Shown: positions 1 to 12,152 of the stretch, one piece after another
Position numbering within the stretch: position 1 is the first letter of the stretch
How the letters are laid out: the number at the start of each line of letters is the position of its first letter
DNA from: Candidatus Calescibacterium sp.
GTDB lineage: Bacteria > Calescibacteriota > Calescibacteriia > Calescibacteriales > Calescibacteriaceae
NCBI GenBank assembly: GCA_032249135.1
Contig: JAVVGL010000039.1
Location: 1 to 12,294, forward strand
Length of the DNA stretch: 12,294 nucleotides
Direction: 5' to 3'
Made by a program: the position numbers and the translations under genes
Notes under the pieces: model-generated
The model's input: only the letters and a program-made list of their open reading frames with translations
Database searches by the model: none
Told to the model about the DNA's origin: nothing

Positions 1-111
1 ATAATCTTTGGGGGCTGCTGCAACGCCTGGCCACTTAATCATTGGTCCGTTGTTTTTTCCGCCCTCCACGGCGTTTGAGTGAGAGAAGAAGTCTTGGAGT
101 GTGTGGAACAA
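1..111 (-). pseudogene. Orphan toxin C-terminal cassette (5' part only, runs off the window): alternative tip of the Het-C/VWA7-like domain
   Basis: The minus strand reads LFHTLQDFFSHSNAVE-GGKNNGPMIKWPGVAAAPKDY... with no stop to base 1. The first part is identical to the Rhs toxin motif, then diverges from the main copy (KDFNWANVKEDPPRY). It lies 20 bp after the stop of the 474-aa gene and has only a TTG (109-111) as a possible start ahead of the motif. Confidence 0.8.
64..107. repeat. 44-bp exact direct repeat, copy A
   Basis: ctccacggcgtttgagtgagagaagaagtcttggagtgtgtgga is identical to 1991-2034. Confidence 0.97.
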
Positions 112-130
112 ATTACAAAATTCAGAATCC

Positions 131-1555
131 CTACTCAACCTTCTTCCTAACATAGTAAACGGTATTAGCTGGCGCAAAAGGACTTGTCCAGAATACCCAT
201 AAATAACCCATATCATCTATACATATATCTTCTTCATCATATGACATATCTATTATTTTCTCCTTAATCCACCCTTCATTCGTTCTAATGTAAAGAAACG
301 ATTCACTTAACAAATATATATTTCTCCTAACATCAAAGCTCAAAAGCGGTGCCCATCCTATTTTCCCCACAAATTCCCACACTATATTTTCTATATTATC
401 TCCCACCAGATCCCAGCTATGCAAGTAAATCTTTCCTCTCCACATATTCGCATAATAAAACTTGCTTCCTTTTACCTTCATAACAAAGTTATCTAAAACT
501 CCTGCGAGTGGTTCGTTATATATATCCACATTTTCCATTTCCAGCTCCTTCATCCTCCTTATCCACTTTAACCTTTTCTCCTTCGTATCTATCTTCAAAA
601 GAAGACTTTTAACTTCTACTCCTTTTCTGTCAATAGTTGGTCCCTGCCATAAAACTATATATAAATTACCATCTGGTCCTATAGCTCCTGAATCAATTTG
701 AAAAACATCAACTATCTCCTTTGCCTCAGGTAATAATTCAGCTAAATCATATAAATCCCATCCTCCTTCTTCATTCTTTACTGCAAAAATATGGCGTGCT
801 TCAGGAACAAAAAGAAGTTCAGGGGGATAGTCCTTCCTATATCCTGGCGCTTCCCAATGATAATAAAGACTATAACTCATAGCTACCTTCTTTTCAAAAG
901 CTGATACCCAATCAGGGAAAATAAGTGGTTCCTTAATCCCAGTACTTTCTAATGGATATATAGGGAATTCATATGGAGGGAAAAAATCAAAAACTTTTTC
1001 TTCCCATCTCCCATCTGTCTCCCTCATAAAATATATCAAATAGCTTCTTATGGTAGTATATATAGACTCATAGCTTCTATCCTTAAGTCTATAATCAGCG
1101 GTAACAAAAAGATGTATTCTTCCTTCTTCATCTACATCAAACTCAGTAATTTGAAAATTAATACGGTGATCATCTAAATCTAAACTTTCCTTGTTAAATC
1201 TATATTTTTTCCCCAATGATTCCTTATTATGTAATAATATCTCATCTTTTATCTTTTCTCCCACAATTTCTGGTCCATGCCATTTATCTTCTCTCAAATC
1301 GTAAATGAAAAATAACAAATCTTTATCGATATCAATAAACATTACATAAACTCTGTTATTCTTACACAACACTTTTAACCAACCTAATCTCAAACCTCTA
1401 TCTCCCTTATAGAGAATTTTTGGAGGAGGCCACTTGCTCTTATTTGTTTCTGTTAAAAATTTACATCTTGGAGCTAACGCAAATACTGACACAAAAATAG
1501 TAATAAAAGAGTTCAAAATATAAAAATAAATCTTATTCCTCATCTTTCTTCCCAC
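131..1555 (-). CDS. Putative immunity protein: exported or lipoprotein-like beta-propeller-type protein (start may be ATG at 1543)
   Basis: 474-aa ORF abutting the toxin stop codon (0 bp gap). It has a basic then hydrophobic N-terminus followed by Cys (MRNKIYFYILNSFITIFVSVFALAPRC) and repeated blade-like motifs (VDEEGRIHLF, IGPDGNLYIV, IDDMGYLWVF). The immunity role is inferred from position. Confidence 0.75.
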   Translation of the reverse strand: MGRKMRNKIYFYILNSFITIFVSVFALAPRCKFLTETNKSKWPPPKILYKGDRGLRLGWLKVLCKNNRVYVMFIDIDKDLLFFIYDLREDKWHGPEIVGEKIKDEILLHNKESLGKKYRFNKESLDLDDHRINFQITEFDVDEEGRIHLFVTADYRLKDRSYESIYTTIRSYLIYFMRETDGRWEEKVFDFFPPYEFPIYPLESTGIKEPLIFPDWVSAFEKKVAMSYSLYYHWEAPGYRKDYPPELLFVPEARHIFAVKNEEGGWDLYDLAELLPEAKEIVDVFQIDSGAIGPDGNLYIVLWQGPTIDRKGVEVKSLLLKIDTKEKRLKWIRRMKELEMENVDIYNEPLAGVLDNFVMKVKGSKFYYANMWRGKIYLHSWDLVGDNIENIVWEFVGKIGWAPLLSFDVRRNIYLLSESFLYIRTNEGWIKEKIIDMSYDEEDICIDDMGYLWVFWTSPFAPANTVYYVRKKVE

Positions 1556-4500
1556 TTATCTTTTAAGCTTAAACAAATCCATATTTAATTGAGTTTTCAA
1601 ACTTGAACACTCCTCACCATATCCCGCAATCCTACACCATTCTTTCACACGATTCACACTATGCTCTACTGCATTACCCCGCCCAATATAATGGTATAAC
1701 CTTCCATCTCTACCAGGTTGTCTTCCTTGGTAAGTTGCTGGACTATCTTTGTTCACGCGACAATGAGATGTTTCCTTATCAACTGATGCCGGCTTACATT
1801 TCATCATGCGCAGAACTAATTCTCCATCTCCCCCATACGCCCGTGAAAGCACATCAACCGTTGAGACAAATCTACATACTGTATCCCCTATGCCACACTC
1901 AGTTCTCCATCCCCAAAACCAGCCAGTAATGAGTCCTTCGGGTTTATATCTAGGTGGATCTTCTTTAACATTTGCCCAATTAAAGTCTTTCTCCACGGCG
2001 TTTGAGTGAGAGAAGAAGTCTTGGAGTGTGTGGAGTTTTTCCCCGAGTTGTGCTGGGGTTAGGGGGATGTTGATTGTTTGTAAAACATAGTTACAGACCG
2101 TATCCCAGTATGGTTCCCAGGTGATCTGCTGTACTGTTTTATAGGTTTGGACAACTATGGTTTTCATGCATCTTACAGACCTAAACCTGATTTCTTCTTT
2201 ATATCCTACTATAACTCGTTCTTCACCTACCTTTACTCTTACCCAAAAGCAAACAACAAGACAAACCCTTCTCCTCTCGTATTTTGGTCTCGTTTCATAT
2301 ATTGGAACCATTTCTTTGTAAGCTCGCAAACAACTTGATTCAACTTCTCTCACCTCTTGAACCGGAATCTTAACCGTTTTTACAACTTGCCTATATTTTT
2401 TAACATTTTCACATCTTTCAGCCCACCTTGTTTGCGGTATAAGGTTTTGTTTAGCCACATTAACACTATTTATGATATTGTCGTAATTGACTACACCATT
2501 ATCAAAGTGTAATGTTTGATTGTATTTATCTGCCAGCCCAGTATTTAAATCCGTATCCCTATTACCCTTTACTACCTCTCTTACTATTTCTTCTTTCAAA
2601 CCAAGCTTCCAGTATAAAGCCTCCCAAGTTATTCCTTCGTGAATTGGAGAAGATACGGGTCCTGTCAGAAGAGATTTTAACTTAAATCTTATATCTCTGA
2701 TTTTACTTAATATTTCGTCTATTTTTTTAACTGCTAAGTTTATATCTGCAAGATATTCAGTAATGTTAGTAAATTCGATTTCACGCTCGAGCTTTTCACT
2801 CCTTTCCTTAGATACTTGCGTTACTTCTTTTATTAATTTTTTTGTTCCTTCTTGAAATTTTCTAAATTCCGTTGGATCTAATTTTGTATTAAGACCTGCG
2901 GTTTTCAGTGCAGCCTCTACAAAATGTTTGGTAACAGCATTCCATACAAAATCTTCAATAGCATCTCCAATACGTTCAAAGAAAGCTAGGATATTTTTTC
3001 TTACCCAGTCAGCAAGGTCTTTTGAAACTTTTTCAACAACTTTACCTACTGCCTCATAAACCAATGCTTGGAAATCATCTATTAATATTTCCAAATTAAT
3101 GAACGCCTTTGCGGCAAGTTCAATTATATCTTTTACGCATATTGTAATTATATGGAACTCTTCACAGCGAAATTTCACTTTCTTAAAAAATCCTTCTATT
3201 TCAGGCCAGCATATTTTGCCAGAAACTTTCGCACAAGCTGTTAGGAATGCTCTCAAATTTACGAAAAATTTTTCAAGAGTACTTAAAACTCCATCTACTA
3301 ATCCTGCCAATGTTTTTATTTTTTGAAAATCCTTCCCTGTTGCTTCTTCAAGGGTCATTTGAACTTCAAAGAGTCCAAAAGGGTCGTAAAATCTTTCGGG
3401 ATTATTCCTTGCGTAAACATAAAGGTTCGCATCTCGGGTTATGTCTGGCTGCAAATACCTACCTGAAAATGGGTCATAATATCTCGCTACATTGTAGAAA
3501 AACCCTGTTTCAAAATCATAGTACATTCCGGGAAGGGCTAAGGGTATTCTGTGATTTCCACTCACAAGCTCACCAAAAGGTGAAAGCTCTCTTTTCCACA
3601 CAACTTTACCTCCTTCATCAGTAGCAAACCAGGGAACACCTTTTATGTCATTATGAACATAAAGGAAGGTATCTTTTTCGGGCGCATATATCTTCAAACA
3701 CTTCTTACTCTTACACAATATCCATTTTAAGTCCTCACTGAAAATCTCAGAAAAATGTAAGAATTTAAAATCAAAATTAAGGCTCAGGTCAGGATAAACT
3801 GGGAATTTTCCGCTCACTATATCATCAAGGCTCAACGGCGTGTATAAAGTAACATATCTTTCTTCGCCAGTTGTATTATCTTTAACTTTCAAAAGCAAAA
3901 CATTTATAGGAAAGCTTTCTTTGTTCATTTGCTGCTTATAATACGATGAAACTAACTTGAGATCAATAAAAACTTTTTCGCCCTCTTCTATAAACATCAT
4001 AGTAGTAACTAGTCCAGTAAATACGGGGTACCAATATACTCCTTTTGAGTTAGCCTTTGCACCCCAAACACCGTCAGTGATTATGTTATTGAAAGTAATT
4101 CCTGGAAATTTTGCCGGAGAAACTCTCACGGTATACCCAGAAAGTTTAATGTCTGAACTTATCTCGTCAAATATTACAGTATTGTTACCCGATGCCTTAT
4201 AAAGAACTAACGATACAAAATTATTGAAGCTAACAGGAAGATTAGCTGAATAATTTATCTCCGGAATTTCAAAAGTGATACCTGAACCAGAATTATATTT
4301 TATCTTTAAAGTCAAATCCATATTATCAAATGAAGGAACCGGAGCATAAGTTGAATTAGAAGTACTACATCCAGATGAATCACATATTTGATAGAAAGCT
4401 AAACAATAATTTCCTGAGCTAACTTTAACACAACCAAATCTTAATTTACCATATGGCACAAGTTCCGCCTGTCTATCTACCAAATCTATGGTAAAACCTC

Positions 4501-7500
4501 CTTCACCACCTTCATATCTTACCTTGGCTGATATGTTAAAGCTATTTTCTTTGAAGAAAAATTTAGATGCTAAATATACTTCACCTCCTCCGTACATTCG
4601 CAATTTTCCGTCTTTTACTTCTACACTTGCATTATTAGGGAATAGAACTTCCCACATATCTTTTTTCAGTATATCAAACGGATCATAAAATGTTGCCTCA
4701 AAGGGTTCAAGAACACCATCTTCATCTGTGAACATAGCCTCGGCACACAAAGTTATGCTATCTGACATGTTCTTGAGTTTTTCTTTTACTCCTACCAATT
4801 TTCCGCTTGACCACACAAAATCTTTTGAACCCTCATAAAGCTTGTTTTGACCAGAGTATATAACCACCCTTTCAGATAAAATTTTGTTCCCCCCTAAATT
4901 ACCCCTATCCCAAACATAATAGAGATTGAAAGAGCAATTTGGACCTTTTATGCTTTTTAGAACTCTTCTACCTTCGCTATCGTAAGAGTATGAAGCCAAA
5001 ATTTCTGTACCAAAAGAATCTTCAATCCTGACCTCACTTAAAAGTTCTCTCTTGTACTTCATCCAAAAACCAGTATCATTGAGAAAATCAACAAACTGGG
5101 CTACCCTGCCTGCCGTATCATATTCGTAAGCTGCTACTTCCTTTCCGCTGGTATCTTTGATAAGAGTTAGTCTGTTGTCTGGTTCATATTGGTAAATGTA
5201 TTCTTTTGTTTTTGAACCTTCCATATACTTTGTGTATATTCTATTGCCAAATTCGTCATATTTTATAGTCTGAGTTAAACCATCTGATGAACTCCATTCT
5301 AAAAGTCTGTCGGCTCTATCGTATTTGTAATCTATTATTTTTGCTTCGCTCCCAAGTCTTTTTGAAATTGAAGTTGTATTCCCTCTTATATCTTGCTCTA
5401 CAACTTGTTCTGAAATTGTCTCTATGCCGCTTTTATATCTTATTATTCCTTTCCTGCTTCCTATCCTTGAAGCTTCAAAACTCACACTATTTCCATATTG
5501 TCCGCTAAAATAACCTTCTGTAAAAACTTCCTTTCCGTTGTAAAGAACAGAACCATCATCACGATACTCAAATTCTGCCCATTTTGGACTTCCAAAGAAT
5601 TCAATCCCAACCAGATTCCCATTAATATCATATTTATATTTTGTTGAATAATTCCAGTCTTTAATTTGTAGTTTCTCTCCTGAAACCATTCCTAATTTAT
5701 TGTAAGAGATAGCAACTTTGAAATCATCTGTTTGAGCTCCTGTTTTATTTCCTTTACCACCCGATACAACCTCGTTCAAAGGATTTTGACCATCATAGAA
5801 AAATTTCACAGTTTCATCTTTGAATCTTAGTGTAGTGATTCTGCCCATTTGGTCATATTCAAACTCTGTAAATTCGCCTTCTGCTTTGTCAATCCGTTTT
5901 ACTCTCCCTGTTTCATCGTAGGTAAAGATAGACCAACCGGCATCTCCCCTCACTTCGGCTAAAACATCATCCATAATACCATACAGTGTCTGGTATTGAA
6001 CTACTTTCCCCGAAACTCCTTCATATTTTACAAGATTTGGAAATCCTGGTTTTTCAAATGCTTGAACTATGGCTAAATCTTCAAAATTTATTTTAAAACC
6101 TCCGTCAAAATATGAGTATTGGACTGTAACCTTGTTGTTTTCTTTTACGCTTATAATTCTTCCTTCGGCATCGTATTCATATTCAATTATTCTTCCATTA
6201 AAGTTATAGCGAACGAGCCTTCCGAGCAAGTCATAAGACCATTCAAGATTCTCAATAATATTTCCATCTTTATCTAACTTTACATCTTTCACGATATTCC
6301 CAAAATTGTCAAAATCTCTTATTACCTCAATAGAACCCGGAATTACTGTTCTCTGTCTTATTGAATCTGGTTTTATATCAAAGAATATTTCTGCGACAAT
6401 TTTTCCATATGAGCTTATTCTGTGAGTGTGATCCCACAGTCCTTCAACTTTCATAACCTCAATGCCATTTCTCATGAATGTTTTTCTTTTTCCTACATCG
6501 TGTATAACTTGCTCAACTATATCTTCTCCATTTGGTCCTGCTTTTTCCTTTACTATCTTATAAACTTCTCCCGTTTCGTCATAAAAGTATCTTTTTACAT
6601 TTCCGTTTTCATCTACCTCGTAAAGCACTCGCGGAAGAATTATCGCATGTGGAGTAACTTCTGGCTCCCCTTCAAATTTTACAAGTTTTGTTCCAATTGG
6701 ACTTTCTATTCTGAGAGTTTGCGAAGCTCTGTCTATTTTATATATCGTTTCTCCAACTCCACTTTGCTGAACTCTTACCTCATCTCTCTCAGGAGAAATA
6801 TTTATAAGAATTTCCTTCTGACCTCCGCTCCTTGCATCATTATCCCACCAGGATATTTTGATACACCTTACTTCAAGCCCTAACTCTCCTTCTTTCCTTT
6901 GAGCACAGCCTTCATTATAATCTCTTATAATTTCTATAAAACCCTTTTCCTTTTCAACTCTCATTGAAGTGTATTCATCTAAAAACGGGTGGTAAGTATA
7001 GTAGACGGTCTCAACAGGGACACCTTCTTCATTTAAAAATGAAACAACAAGAGGGTTTCCTCTCTCATCAAATGCTTCATACAAAATTTTCAGAATACCA
7101 GATTCTGTTGGTAATTCTGTCGGCAATTCTACGACTTCTGTTGTAGATTCAGCTGAAACTTCATATCCGCGCGGTGGGACTTGAAAATCAAACTTTTTAT
7201 AATTCCCCAAAATATCTTGAGCTTCTACTCCGATTACTTGCCAAGACTTCAAATTTGCTACAAGAACACTAATTTTATTTTCTGATATTTGAGCATCAGC
7301 GCCACCTACTTTTACAAATGCAACAGGAACTTCATCTTTCAAATTCCCTTCAAATAATACTTTGTCTCCTATCCAAGAGATATTCAAATTTAAATCAGGA
7401 GGTGTGCTATCAAGATTTAATTTCAATGTTCTAAATTCTTCTACATTTCCAGCTTTATCTTCTGATCTGTACAAAAGAGTGTATTTACCGTCTGGAAGTT

Positions 7501-8592
7501 CTAACATGAACTCATTGAGGTTACCAAGATAGATTTGTTCTGATCCAAGCTCTACAAAAACACTTGCTCCATCGCTTCCGGCAATGTTATCTTGGACGAA
7601 AATTTTGATTGGAGTCTTTGGAGTTACAAAAACATCGGAACCAGATTCATATTTTGGATTACCTATAAAAACTATTGATACAGGTGGAGTGTTATCTACT
7701 GCAACTTCACCATATTGCGGATATTCTTCAGATTCTATAATCTCAACCGTAATTCTGGATTCTGCCGATAATGAAGATAGTAGATTTTTCAAGTTTTCCA
7801 AAAGCTCCTGAGATACTACTTCGCCCTTTATCTCATATTCACTATCTTTTTTCTGATTTATTTCAAACTCTATTTTCTTTTCAGGGAGTTCTGCTGATAT
7901 TTTTGCACCTGAGCTTGAAAAACTTTTTGTAATTTCTATCTTTGCACTTTTAATTCCAGTAGCAACAAGAACTTTTATTATATCATCTAATATTTTCCGT
8001 TGCTCTTCTTTCAGTTCCCCTTCTATTTTTTCGTTTATAAGACTTGCAAATACTGTGAAGTAAAAGCGACCATCCTGAACAAAATTGCCTCCTTCATCTT
8101 TTCCATCCCACAAAATCTGAATGTGATATGTGTTTAAATCTTCGTAGGGTTTCAAATAATGCTCGTATCTTCTATATAAATTCTTGATTAAACTATCGGT
8201 AAGGTATGTTTTGGTTAAAATTGATTTCACCTTGCTCCCTTGTGCATCTTTATATACAGCAAGTCCTGAAACATATAAACTTGCCTTATCTTCAATCCTA
8301 TCTGAATTAACAACAACGGAAAGTCTGATTTTGTGTTCATCAAACTTGCCATCCTTGTTTTTGGGAGAGATAATGTGAGGAGACGGAACAAAATCTTTTA
8401 TCAGAATTTTCGGCTCAGCTGAAAAATCCTTTTTAACTTCCCTTTTTTTACAACCAAAATCAATAAAAGAGAGAAATAAAAGAAAAACAATTGCTAATGC
8501 TGATTTGAATATTTTATGAGTTAATCTTGAACCACTAAATTGCCCAACTTGCTTTCCGGTATTCCTACCCCCCCCGACCTTCCGGAAATCAT
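1556..8592 (-). CDS. Rhs/YD-repeat polymorphic toxin with lipoprotein-type signal peptide, FlgD-Ig and Ig-like domains and a C-terminal Het-C/VWA7-like Zn-hydrolase domain; frameshifted at a G8 tract near the 5' end (ORF track calls 1556..8230)
   Basis: YD repeats (YDLLGRL, YDAEGRI, YDETGRV, YDQMGRI, YDRADRL, YDEFGNR) and the Rhs core signature PGMYYDFETGFFYNVARYYDPFSGRYLQPD...NLYVYARNNP...DPFGL (ends ~3371). FlgD-Ig-like ISPKNKDGKFD...WDGKDEGGNFVQDGRFY and Ig-like DNTPP...YRSEDKAGNVE...DSTPP. The frame is open from 8593; the ATG at 8592 is in another frame. Confidence 0.9.
1991..2034. repeat. 44-bp exact direct repeat, copy B (encodes HTLQDFFSHSNAVE in the toxin)
   Basis: Identical to 64-107, 1927 bp apart, same orientation. 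Confidence 0.97.
8568..8575 (-). repeat. Poly-G (G8) tract at the 5' end of the Rhs gene, a candidate phase-variation switch
   Basis: C8 on the + strand in an AT-rich context. G9 (or G6) would put ATG 8592 in frame with the Rhs ORF; G8 gives a stop at 8521-8523. Confidence 0.6.
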
Positions 8593-8794: not shown

Positions 8795-9469
8795 ATGAAG
8801 GTATCGCTATCGGTGGAAGCACTTGAAGTTCTTGAGGATAAACTTGGGAAGGAAGGAGCGAAAGCTTTTATCAGGTCCATAGATGAAATAATATCAGAGA
8901 TAACCGAACTCAAGTGGAAGACATCAAAAGAAGAATTACTCAACGCAATAAGAGAAGAGTTCATAAACAAAAACATCTTTGAAGAAAGAACACGCTCAAT
9001 AGAAGAAAGAGTTAATTTTTCAAGGTCAGAACTTGAGGCAAAAATAGATAAATTCAAATCAGAACTTGAGGCTAAAATAGAAAATGTTAGAGTAGAACTG
9101 GAAAAAGTGAAAGCAGAACTTGATGCGAAGATAGAAAAAGTTAGAGTAGAACTTGAAGCAAAGATAGAGAAAGTTGGAGCAGAATTAGATAAAGTCAAAT
9201 CTGAGCTTGATGAAAAGATAGAGAAAGTAAGAGCTGAACTTCTGAGTGAGATAGAGAAAGTTAGAGCAGAAGTAGAAAGATTGAAAATTGAGATTGACGC
9301 AAAAATAGATAAAGTAAAGGCAGACCTTGAATCTCAGATACGAAAGTTTGAATCTCAAATACAAAAGAGTGATATGAAACTTAATTTTCTTATCATTTTG
9401 ACTATTATTGCTATTGCTCTTATGAACCCAGTTGTAGCTGAAATCATAAAATCACTCCTGAAACTCTAA
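8795..9469 (+). CDS. Coiled-coil membrane-anchored protein (DUF1640/CCDC90-like head-stalk-anchor architecture)
   Basis: Short helical head (LEDKLGKEGAKAF), repeated ELEAKIEKVRV-type 11-residue units mixed with 7-residue units, and a single C-terminal hydrophobic helix (LNFLIILTIIAIALM). Confidence 0.8.
   Translation: MKVSLSVEALEVLEDKLGKEGAKAFIRSIDEIISEITELKWKTSKEELLNAIREEFINKNIFEERTRSIEERVNFSRSELEAKIDKFKSELEAKIENVRVELEKVKAELDAKIEKVRVELEAKIEKVGAELDKVKSELDEKIEKVRAELLSEIEKVRAEVERLKIEIDAKIDKVKADLESQIRKFESQIQKSDMKLNFLIILTIIAIALMNPVVAEIIKSLLKL
9028..9330 (+). repeat. Imperfect 33-bp/21-bp coding tandem repeats
   Basis: For example agaacttgaggcaaaaatagataaattcaaatc (9028-9060) and agaacttgaggctaaaatagaaaatgttagagt (9061-9093), followed by further degenerate units. 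Confidence 0.75.
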
Positions 9470-10517: not shown

Positions 10518-12152
10518 TCATATCACTATTGGCTCCTTGAACTCTCCATATACTTTTTTCAAAGCTTTTGTTGTTTCTCCAATGGTTGCTCCATTTTCAA
10601 GTGCTTCAATCAAATAAGGCATGACATTTTCTCCTTTTTCTGCTGCTCGTGAAATATTGTCAAGTAGCTTTTGAATTTTTCTCATATCTCTTTTAGATTT
10701 GAATTCTTGAAGCTTTTTTGCTTTTTCTACTGCCTCACGAGGTCTGAATATCTCAAACTTGTGTTCCGATGCACCATCTTCTTCCCTAAATATATTAACT
10801 CCGATTATTTTTTTCTTTCCTTGCTCAATAAGAACTTGCTGTTTATAAGCTTCTGAAAGTATGATTGATTGAATAAATCCATCTTTTATCGCCTTCACCA
10901 TACCTCCGTAGTCTTGAACTCTTTTCATTTCTGCCCTTATTTTCTCTTCCATCTCATCTGTGAGTTTTTCTATAAAGAATGATCCTCCGAGTGGATCTGC
11001 TACTTCTGGTATATCGGTCTCAAAAGCTAATATCTGCTGAATTCTCAAAGCTATTTTTGCGGAGTGTTCTGTTGGTATTGAGTAAGCTTCATCATAAGCT
11101 TCTGTGAATATAGATTGTCCACCCCCTAAAACTGTTGCAAGAGCCCCTAATGTGACTCGTGCTATGTTAAGCAAAGGTTCAGCTCGTGTTAGTGATGCTC
11201 CCCCGCATGCGACTGCAAATTTCATCGCCATATTCTTTTCATCTTTTACTCCGAGCTCCCTTGTGATGTGAGCCCATAGCCTCCTTGCAGCTCTATATTT
11301 TGCTACCTCTTCAAAAAGATTGTGATATGTGCAGAAGAAGAACGTGACTCTTTTTATAAATGAATCGGGATCAAGACCTCGGGATAGAACTTCATTTACA
11401 TAGACTTTTGCGTTCTCAAATGCAAATGCTACCTCCTGATAAGCTGTTGCTCCTGCTTCCCTTATGTGATACCCACAAACTGATATCGGATTAAATTTTG
11501 GAACATACTTTGTGCAGAATTCAATAACATCACAAGCAAGTTTTACAGAAGGCTCTACCGGATATATCCATGTGCCACGAGCTATTATTTCTTTTAGTAT
11601 ATCGTTCTGCAATGTTCCCGTAAGTTTCTCAAAAGGTATTCCTCTCTTTTTTGCAACTATAAGATAAAGAGCCATAATCTGTGGAGCAGTTCCATTTATT
11701 GTAAATGAAACGGAAATTTTGTCTATCGGGATACCATCAAAAATCTCCATCATATCTTCTACTGTATCCACTGCAACTCCGACTTTTCCAACCTCTGGTA
11801 ATGCAACTTCTTCGTCTGAATCATAGCCCATCTGTGTTGGAAGATCAAAAGCCACTGAAAGCCCAGTATTCCCCTGTTTCAGGAGAAATTTAAATCTTTC
11901 ATTTGTTTCTTTTGCCGTTCCAAATCCTGCATATTGTCTCATTGTCCAAAGCTTATCTTTATACATAGTTCTGTATGGCCCCCTCGTGAAAGGAAACTCT
12001 CCTGGATCTCCGAGTTTTTCTTTATAATACCGATTTATATCTCCCAAATCATCCGGCGTATAAAAAATTTTGTAGTTATATAGTTTGTAGTCTGAATTTG
12101 AATCGTTCCATCCGTTCTGTGTTTCTTTTTCTTTTGAATTCTCTTTTCGCAT
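10518..12152 (-). CDS. Methylmalonyl-CoA mutase family (AdoCbl-dependent acyl-CoA mutase) large, substrate-binding subunit
   Basis: Hallmark motifs PGEFPFTRG, WTMRQYAGFG, GLSVAFDLPTQMGYDSD, GTLQNDILKE, GYHIREAGA, DPLGGS and IIGVN. No DxHxxG cobalamin-binding domain, so this is a split enzyme. Confidence 0.95.
   Translation of the reverse strand: MRKENSKEKETQNGWNDSNSDYKLYNYKIFYTPDDLGDINRYYKEKLGDPGEFPFTRGPYRTMYKDKLWTMRQYAGFGTAKETNERFKFLLKQGNTGLSVAFDLPTQMGYDSDEEVALPEVGKVGVAVDTVEDMMEIFDGIPIDKISVSFTINGTAPQIMALYLIVAKKRGIPFEKLTGTLQNDILKEIIARGTWIYPVEPSVKLACDVIEFCTKYVPKFNPISVCGYHIREAGATAYQEVAFAFENAKVYVNEVLSRGLDPDSFIKRVTFFFCTYHNLFEEVAKYRAARRLWAHITRELGVKDEKNMAMKFAVACGGASLTRAEPLLNIARVTLGALATVLGGGQSIFTEAYDEAYSIPTEHSAKIALRIQQILAFETDIPEVADPLGGSFFIEKLTDEMEEKIRAEMKRVQDYGGMVKAIKDGFIQSIILSEAYKQQVLIEQGKKKIIGVNIFREEDGASEHKFEIFRPREAVEKAKKLQEFKSKRDMRKIQKLLDNISRAAEKGENVMPYLIEALENGATIGETTKALKKVYGEFKEPIVI

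Follow-up and report, generated by a model that had tools for sequence, protein, structure and literature searches.

Polymorphic toxins are thought to diversify by swaps of whole C-terminal domains at a boundary that lies in the delivery part of the protein. The donors of such swaps, orphan modules, were defined by Poole et al. (2011) as toxin fragments without a start codon or delivery region that keep a demarcation motif (VENN or DPxGL), as a rule with part of the core upstream of it, and the whole toxin domain and are followed by an immunity gene of their own. In Salmonella, according to the passages on orphan rhs genes in PMC3967940, main and orphan genes recombine through 522 bp of core sequence that are 95% identical, the main immunity gene having first been preserved by a duplication; the account of the Rhs arrays of bee-gut Snodgrassella (PMC5727410) sums up both the term "C-terminal displacement" and the recombination of conserved core regions with one another. 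In contact-dependent growth inhibition (CDI) loci, the orphan cdiA-CT/cdiI modules run from VENN block to VENN block, and in Yersinia pestis Microtus an orphan became fused to cdiA through a deletion of 3,557 bp that arose naturally (orphan-module sections of PMC3150448). Here we describe a related Rhs toxin locus in Candidatus Calescibacterium sp. The DNA analyzed, hereafter the window, is the complete 12,294-base contig C39 (JAVVGL010000039.1) of a 51-contig assembly (GCA_032249135.1; 2,097,337 bases, G+C content of about 34%). Its left 2 kb is probably best explained as the 3' end of an Rhs toxin gene followed by silent orphan cassettes that carry half a toxin domain and feed recombination.

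The toxin gene (1556..8230, minus strand) is an open reading frame (ORF) of 2224 codons plus stop, belonging to the Rhs/YD-repeat polymorphic toxins. RHS/YD repeats were recognized in its shell by Pfam RHS_repeat (E = 7.1e-25; 87.3 bits with a cutoff of 22), the Pfam RHS family (PF03527) scored 16.9 bits, under its cutoff, and the end of the Rhs core gave weak matches to YenC2/TccC3 chains, and to nothing else, among PDB sequences. The core ends at DPFGL (3371..3385, minus strand; amino acid [aa] 1616 by position in the translation), a motif of the PxxxxDPxGL type and the canonical boundary of the variable C-terminal region. An exact 44-nucleotide (nt) direct repeat occupies positions 64-107 and 1991-2034, with a spacing of 1927 nt, and these are the only two copies in the whole 2,097,337-base assembly. 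On the minus strand, the 44-mer reads TC and then 14 codons, HTLQDFFSHSNAVE, which hold an HxxxDxxxH plus NxxE signature. The main copy (1991..2034, minus strand) places the motif His at aa 2067, and 446 codons separate it from DPFGL, close to the roughly 450 given in the initial annotation. Another 144 toxin codons remain 3' of it, and these constitute distal tip 1 (1559..1990, minus strand), in which a 25-tip alignment and sliding identity delimit the segments V1, C1, V2, C2, and V3 plus tail. The putative cognate immunity gene 1 (131..1543, minus strand; 470-aa ORF at 134-1543, stop at 131-133) starts 12 nt after the toxin stop and encodes an N-terminal hydrophobic signal or anchor. Its end is part of a 3' anchor (115..159, minus strand), which consists of YYVRKKVE, the stop, and 16 nt of spacer and is conserved in every allele. 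The 23-nt spacer itself (108..130, minus strand) runs from the immunity stop to the orphan copy of the 44-nt block (64..107, minus strand). From this copy, the minus-strand frame 216..1 stays open to the contig edge with a differing sequence, GGKNNGPMIKWPGVAAAPKDY, which represents the V1 start of orphan tip 2 (1..63, minus strand), cut by the contig end. Both the bracketing of 144 toxin codons and a putative immunity gene by the repeat and the open, divergent frame behind the downstream copy had been noted in the initial annotation, and both were confirmed.

In comparison with the systems described above, the locus is a variant of the known orphan C-terminal/immunity scheme ("C-terminal displacement") and is new in its intradomain boundary. 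It resembles the Rhs orphan modules, as these are portrayed in the relevant parts of PMC3967940 and PMC5727410, in that an Rhs gene of full length, together with its immunity gene, is followed by promoterless, start-less fragments, each with its own immunity gene, in that the number of orphans varies among strains, and in that homologous recombination between main gene and orphan could redeploy the latter. The start-less, delivery-less fragment with an immunity gene of the Poole et al. (2011) definition is present, whereas neither the demarcation motif nor the whole toxin domain is retained. In the Rhs displacement treated in those same parts, the shared homology lies upstream of DPxGL and an orphan is a whole toxin domain; in the window, the shared block lies far past DPFGL, in the catalytic domain, and an orphan is the distal part of that domain. 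The CDI orphans of PMC3150448, as its sections on these modules present them, likewise extend precisely between successive short, conserved, motif-encoding blocks, and insertion elements can disrupt them; however, VENN demarcates the delivery part and is located outside the toxin domain, whereas the block of the window is the enzyme's own predicted metal-binding signature. Strings of nonidentical immunity paralogues, reshaped by recombination beside a polymorphic toxin, are known from type VII secretion (PMC9484751), but immunity genes stand alone there, whereas the window locus alternates toxin sub-domain fragments with immunity genes. No description of orphan modules starting inside a toxin catalytic domain was found in the literature searched, which included few subscription journals and therefore provides weak evidence of absence.

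Two other Rhs arrays in the genome, on contigs C8 and C3, carry three orphan-type fragments each, with about 100 aa of core kept up to DPxGMF. Since these arrays in the same genome are canonical, the intradomain boundary is special to this locus and not to the organism. Both arrays (G000 C8:3-5274, plus strand, and C3:120899-126890, minus strand) reach contig ends; the fragments differ in their toxin regions (each about 340 aa), and downstream of each lie small ORFs, about 160-200 aa long and hydrophobic at the N-terminus, that are probably immunity genes.

The last 365 residues of the toxin (1559..2653, minus strand) are, as judged from Pfam, hhalign, and invariant residues, a divergent VWA7_N/Het-C-like predicted hydrolase domain with an insertion of about 135 aa. 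Scored against Pfam VWA7_N, they reached 24.9 bits (cutoff, 27.5), with the match confined to the motif, and the L001 allele, one of the related loci described below, reached 27.6 bits. At E <= 0.001, 2 of 1.84 billion cluster representatives matched the window domain, and for one of these, P0003, membership in VWA7_N/Het-C is confirmed (45.1 and 21.5 bits). The two proteins have in common PIHE, HFD, L-H-x-L-Q-D-F-x-S-H-S-N-x-V-E, the Gly of LITGW, and H-C-x-x-N-K-D, and the insertion of about 135 aa is extra in the window domain. An hhalign comparison of 4 toxin alleles with 4 Pfam-confirmed VWA7_N proteins gave a probability of 96.8% and an E value of 2.6e-10 over query residues 199-340, i.e., from the motif block into the tip; the ESM Atlas neighbors of the domain were also VWA7_N clusters, taken as a lead only. 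The Tox-HET-C signature, in the family description of Zhang et al. (2012; PMC3482391), comprises H, [DE], HxD, HxxxDxxxH, Nxx[DE], and [ST]G, and the active site predicted from it would depend on metal and be akin to those of zinc phospholipase C and S1-P1 nuclease. An all-alpha fold like that of these enzymes and metal-dependent hydrolase activity are expected of the family. All six elements could be placed in the window domain (PIHE, HFD, HTLQDFFSH, NAVE, and the TG of LITGW). With the Tox-HET-C (as described there), VWA7_N (PF25107), and Het-C (PF07217) families, it shares this signature and the position as C-terminal toxin domain in a polymorphic toxin system; unlike Tox-HET-C, it has the insertion and is highly divergent.

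As the 44-mer encodes two of these elements, HxxxDxxxH and NxxE, the junction lies inside the predicted catalytic domain, as the initial annotation had held, and hhalign aligned the motif together with the whole tip. The family-invariant H-C-x-x-N-K-D residues are also located in the tip, and the active site is therefore probably built from both halves of the domain. It had been proposed that replacement of the distal part would keep the chemistry unchanged: the orphans do carry the distal part only, but the chemistry is not wholly encoded upstream. Relatives of the domain were scarce. A search of PDB sequences with the VWA7_N profile found no solved relative; protein searches with the 365-aa domain gave 1 match in the near length range and 0 at 640-2000 aa, a range that ends below the full-length relatives of >2000 aa; the domain was not found in the 40 other genomes searched, including 6 of the same family at 82-86% completeness; and a scan of species-representative genomes returned 3 distant VWA7_N proteins only. 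Just past the C3 array of the window's genome, an open frame (G000 C3:119394-119846, minus strand) was observed whose start, ...GEPIHEEITETAI..., resembles the N-terminal PIHE of the Het-C-like domain.

Searching metagenomes with a degenerate motif block yielded 8 contigs, which we counted as 9 loci (L numbers). One of these, the 64.9-kb contig L002/L003, is 98.5% identical to window 1-8432 and extends the locus leftwards. Its order is Rhs toxin with tip 1, immunity gene 1 (469 aa), orphan tip 2 (160 aa), immunity gene 2 (472 aa), orphan tip 3 (160 aa), immunity gene 3 (477 aa), and ordinary flanking sequence, with the lengths of the orphan tips counted from the motif to the stop codon. Units 2 and 3 show nucleotide identities of 76% and 71%, respectively, to unit 1, and the SHCRVNKDS family motif is kept by both orphan tips. 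Beyond the edge of the window, tip 2 continues in L002 as ...EGNLITGWFWGW... The initial annotation had anticipated a complete tip with an NKDS-like motif and a paralogous immunity gene to the left of the contig, and had regarded an orphan frame that ends quickly without such a paralogue as the contrary outcome. In L002, tip 2 is complete and immunity gene 2 follows, with a second orphan and a third immunity gene behind them. Within the window's own genome, the end of contig C35 also carries the 3' anchor (IYYVRKKVE, the stop, and the first 16 spacer nt) and continues into L002-type flank; because an immunity 3' end and the L002 flank meet there, C39 and C35 are two sides of one unassembled array. 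Array length differs by strain, with no orphan in L005, L001, and L009, two in L002, and at least one in the window.

The second 44-mer and the sequence beyond it might be suspected to be a chimeric join of strain variants, as the window is a contig of a metagenome-assembled genome that ends 63 nt past the repeat, the runs examined hold several tip variants, and contig L007 (see below) could be a chimeric path. Part of window 1-2300 was present in 20 public hot-spring or sediment runs, and at least 75% of its sampled words were found in 5 of them, from five studies. For four public runs (X1-X4), contigs built at k=31 were aligned to window 1-2400, contig depth figures not being taken as copy numbers. 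The orphan 44-mer, the spacer, and immunity gene 1 were joined inside single contigs of two independent runs (X1, 78-683; X2, 78-1042), free of differences and at gene-level depth. Moreover, in all four runs a contig linked sequence resembling the window at positions up to 1933 to window position 1 via 9 nt, ATTGCCTTC; the coding strand across this link reads ...PKDY-EGN-LITGWFWGW..., the same continuation as in L002. A second block of near identity must therefore start 9 nt past the contig end, and the summed depth of the run contigs at 1841-1920 was 2-4 times that of neighboring bins. The protein database contributed 21 short relatives, 14 of which start in an alternative frame across the immunity 3' end and spacer (MLGRRLSRD.EFCNL...) and are, on account of this start, orphans from other assemblies (JGI, NCBI, and ENA records). 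With the same junction present in the window, in the 64.9-kb contig of another assembly, in single full-depth contigs of two further runs, and in 14 database proteins, an assembly artifact, which the initial annotation had named as its second contrary outcome, is excluded for practical purposes, and we give it next to no weight. A loose end at window position 115, where runs X1, X3, and X4 have C35-type flank, is ambiguous; it may reflect the similar (93-96%) 3' end of the last unit matched to the window and not an orphan-less variant.

The stop of the contig at position 1 fits the repeated C1 block that begins just beyond, or a repeat insertion at that place of the kind seen in L007. This 2.5-kb contig agrees fully (100%) with window 1-127 as well as with the final 262 nt of C35, and it carries an insertion of 370-377 nt exactly at window position 1, within orphan tip 2 (L007:128-504). 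The ends of the insertion occur as partial copies on at least 9 other contigs of the window's genome, among them G000 C5:17493-17656, C18:1-119 and 20903-21052, C14:9353-9446, C9:35964-36060, C16:35803-35877, C2:1213-1267, and C11:27067-27128, and the two ends are dispersed separately. The insertion is noncoding and may have given rise to a TTAT target duplication. AT-rich in its 5' part, it has a long tract of purines and, in its 3' part, folds strongly (-54 kcal/mol for 120 nt), terminating in a perfect hairpin. An Rfam search of L007 gave no family match. The insertion could represent one of this lineage's small mobile or repeat elements, and the orphan in the window's own population may be interrupted by it. 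Past the insertion, L007 follows unit 2 at 100% identity as far as roughly codon 125 of the immunity gene, and from there it follows unit 3 bar one base, which creates a nonsense codon (WEE*IF). The resulting hybrid immunity gene (L007:895-2319, plus strand) passes from L002 immunity 2 to immunity 3 by an in-frame crossover at KELLKKYEPY. L007 is either a real one-unit deletion, produced by in-register recombination between immunity paralogues and followed by decay, or a chimeric assembly path.

By the measure of the main copy, orphans carry 158 of the 365 aa of the domain, the distal part only, and the N-terminal half with PIHE and HFD was missing from 18 of 18 orphan-context copies. Orphan frames have no start of their own and begin within the 3' end of the preceding immunity gene, in another reading frame. 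Among the 18 copies, the orphan sequence begins at HTLQ/HALQ in 7, at QDFF (9 nt later) in 10, and inside V1 in 1, the motif block being the 5' limit in 17. The QDFF form lacks 9 nt with the HTL codons (NL[FL]-QDFF), and in the intact form this stretch is flanked by two TCCA repeats, which suggests a slipped deletion between these repeats. The orphans with this loss are P0006-P0009, P0011-P0014, P0016, and P0017. The 42 coding nt of the motif block are identical in 11 of 12 copies from the window and the 8 contigs, and the twelfth, L002 tip 3, has 3 changes. The window allele and that of L001/L009 share 59% residue identity over the domain, and the longest exact nucleotide run between the window and L001, 53 nt, spans the motif, the second longest being 26 nt. 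All 14 motif codons are identical between the two, versus 66% of other codons for the same residue (P of about 0.003). As the longest perfectly conserved stretch, the motif block would set the 5' limit of the exchangeable part. At the other end, the 3' anchor is 93-96% identical (L001, the three units of L002, L005, L007, and L009), compared with 68-79% for the rest of the units.

Alignment of the 25 tips revealed two conserved blocks, C1 (LITGWFWGW...MMKCKP) and C2 (SHCRVNKDSP...QGRQP), between variable segments of a few discrete types: K, GG, or KK for V1; ASVD..,.QVKDNT, or IPDPDK for V2; GRDG or KEGDG for V3a; and three types of tail. For each of the pairs V1 x V2, V2 x V3a, and V3a x tail, all four combinations were found, and the V1 type at the main position of the window occurs in five orphan-context tips (P0005-P0009). 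L005, a strain without orphans, has a patchwork as its main unit: this is unit-1-like over the motif, V1, and C1, its toxin tail is 96-98% identical to those of orphan units 2 and 3, and its immunity gene is unit-1-like in the first half and 90-100% identical to unit 2 in the second. L006 and L008 are similar patchworks, and in L006, 101 nt of window-type N-part are joined to a GG-type V1, as predicted for a recombinant. These alignments indicated that exchange is real but does not occur at the motif only, the conserved blocks in the tip and immunity gene and the 3' anchor being used as well. The interpretation in the initial annotation is borne out in outline; of what it had suggested, the motif as homology anchor is therefore retained as the 5'-most of several anchors, and tip exchange among related genomes is retained as reassorted segments (L005, L006, and L008) with breakpoints that are not confined to the motif. 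L001 and L009 have a different allele of the whole C-terminal region; identity to the window, about 0.95 up to DPFGL, is down to about 0.55 within the next 15 codons or so, at window position ~3340. Canonical displacement is thereby seen as well.

Several points weigh against orphan cassettes as donors that recombine at the motif. First, one spacer is common to all orphans, and with a single spacer, the boundary could stem from one old illegitimate join that was later copied and not from repeated use as a crossover site. In that case, a truncated toxin fragment that by chance started at the motif would once have been joined behind an immunity gene, followed by resizing of the arrays through unequal crossing-over anywhere in the 1.9-kb units, leaving the motif as a scar. 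The spread of crossovers along the unit and the likeness of L007 to a one-unit loss with the crossover inside immunity genes would agree with such a history, and longer homology than that of the 44-mer is available in internal blocks, C1 for example having about 250 nt at 84-96% identity. We nevertheless consider it rather unlikely, as no exact run shared by diverged alleles is longer than that of the motif block, whose 14 codons show 0 synonymous changes, a pattern that fits repeated homogenization, and as K-type and G-type V1 segments stand behind the same type of N-part upstream sequence (window, L002, L004, and L005 versus L006). The latter requires a breakpoint at or beside the motif, unless L006 is a longer orphan. 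L006 is itself among the points that count against the donors: this sole main-context copy with an orphan-type V1 is preceded by 101 nt only, with a stop in frame 28 codons ahead of the motif, and it could represent a broken gene or else a longer orphan. The predicted product, the window's N-part joined to tip 2 by deletion of 1927 nt, was seen in no read or contig; since k=31 contigs break at a 44-nt repeat, this negative is not a sign of absence. Metagenome data separate paralogues from strain variants only in part. To these may be added the VWA7_N score of the window protein itself, under the Pfam cutoff, the first His codon deleted in 10 of 18 orphan-context copies, changes at invariant positions in three orphans (P0013, NKY; P0014, FFFHSNGVE; P0015, SYSN), and L007, whose match to the ends of both the window and C35 comes with an interrupted tip 2 and a nonsense codon in the hybrid immunity gene.

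Some of the orphans are in decay. If all tips were dead leftovers that donate nothing, selection would act on the orphan immunity genes alone, for protection from neighbors. The lost His codons and altered invariant residues, together with the insertion and nonsense codon of L007, would suit this alternative, as would the orphan immunity genes themselves, which have intact frames and sequences resembling ribosome-binding sites (RBS); retention of orphan immunity genes is well known from other systems (discussion of orphan immunity in PMC5727410). On the other hand, segments that are 96-100% identical are common to main genes of one strain and orphans of another, four combinations exist in three tip-segment pairs, and uninterrupted tips are found in two L002 orphans and 14 database proteins, a count biased by gene callers, which report open frames. 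Furthermore, the differences in C1 that separate the main gene from the L002 orphans are mainly synonymous (synonymous divergence [dS] of 0.25-0.34, nonsynonymous divergence [dN] of 0.02-0.04), and this low dN relative to dS also speaks against dead tips, even though the C1 divergence may predate displacement. In view of this, we find it improbable that the tips are inert, and return to the reading of the orphans as recombination donors.

The immunity ORF co-varies with the tip across alleles. No Pfam family matched immunity protein 1, and the immunity proteins have an N-terminal hydrophobic segment, which would be in keeping with export of these proteins and with a toxin whose site of action lies outside the cytoplasm. 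ESM Atlas placed the immunity protein near BNR/sialidase-like clusters (0.88-0.90), with top matches that have no family, and this is the sole basis of the "propeller" label. When the toxin domain and the mature immunity protein were modeled as a complex, the score was 0.01, a value that bears on binding in neither direction. The ATG of immunity gene 1 is preceded by a purine-rich, RBS-like stretch, and such sequences are kept by the orphan immunity genes; as no terminator-like site was found in window 1-2400, read-through expression of the orphan immunity genes is plausible.

Beyond the array, its boundaries, the domain homology, and the segment patchwork, which were observed directly, we infer the following scheme. 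The effector would be a divergent VWA7_N/Het-C-like metal hydrolase whose toxicity is neutralized by the exported immunity protein encoded beside it. Of the hydrolase, a cassette holds the distal part, starting at the HxxxDxxxH-SNxxE motif and ending with the stop codon, and to this it adds a paralogous immunity gene; it is bounded by the 44-nt motif block at the 5' side and by the conserved immunity 3' end and spacer at the 3' side. Orphans without the N-terminal half or a start can matter in two ways alone, by providing immunity genes and by donating sequence to homologous recombination. Such recombination, presumably of RecA type, among units and among strains would swap segments of tip and immunity gene but leave the Rhs shell and the enzyme's upstream half as they are, and the variable segments might set immunity specificity. 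In a more far-reaching version, which we put forward tentatively and hold to be less probable than not, the locus would be a cassette-based, sub-domain diversity generator for toxin-immunity specificity, in which short blocks of perfect conservation would serve to join a fixed catalytic front half to reassortable V1, V2, and V3/tail segments, these and the matching immunity segments being taken from the silent cassettes. It would then be closer to antigenic variation by segmental gene conversion than to all-or-none C-terminal displacement.

In the rest of the window, a 224-aa coiled-coil-like ORF (8795-9469, plus strand) contains degenerate 33/21/54-nt periodic repeats at 9027-9374 (ELEAKIEKV... 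type) and a hydrophobic C-terminal segment, and the next ORF encodes 243 aa with a signal-like N-terminus. The 544-aa ORF at 10518-12152 (minus strand) may encode a methylmalonyl-CoA mutase large subunit, which it resembles by eye.

Taken together, the unit of exchange in this locus is a fraction of one enzyme domain, and its boundary is the enzyme's own predicted metal-binding motif. The table of Tox-HET-C in the 2012 survey lists no immunity family (PMC3482391), and the putatively exported 470-aa protein of the window locus offers a candidate immunity family for these toxins. Should the variable segments set immunity specificity, the strains would provide a natural experiment on which variation a Het-C hydrolase tolerates and which parts of it are read by the immunity protein. 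If the locus does generate diversity at the sub-domain level, the variable segments would trace out where Het-C-type toxins are bound by immunity proteins, and the 470-aa protein would found the first immunity family for them. The array would also represent strain-level diversification of a weapon in an uncultured, deep-branching hot-spring lineage, to whose family 6 of the 40 relatives searched belong.

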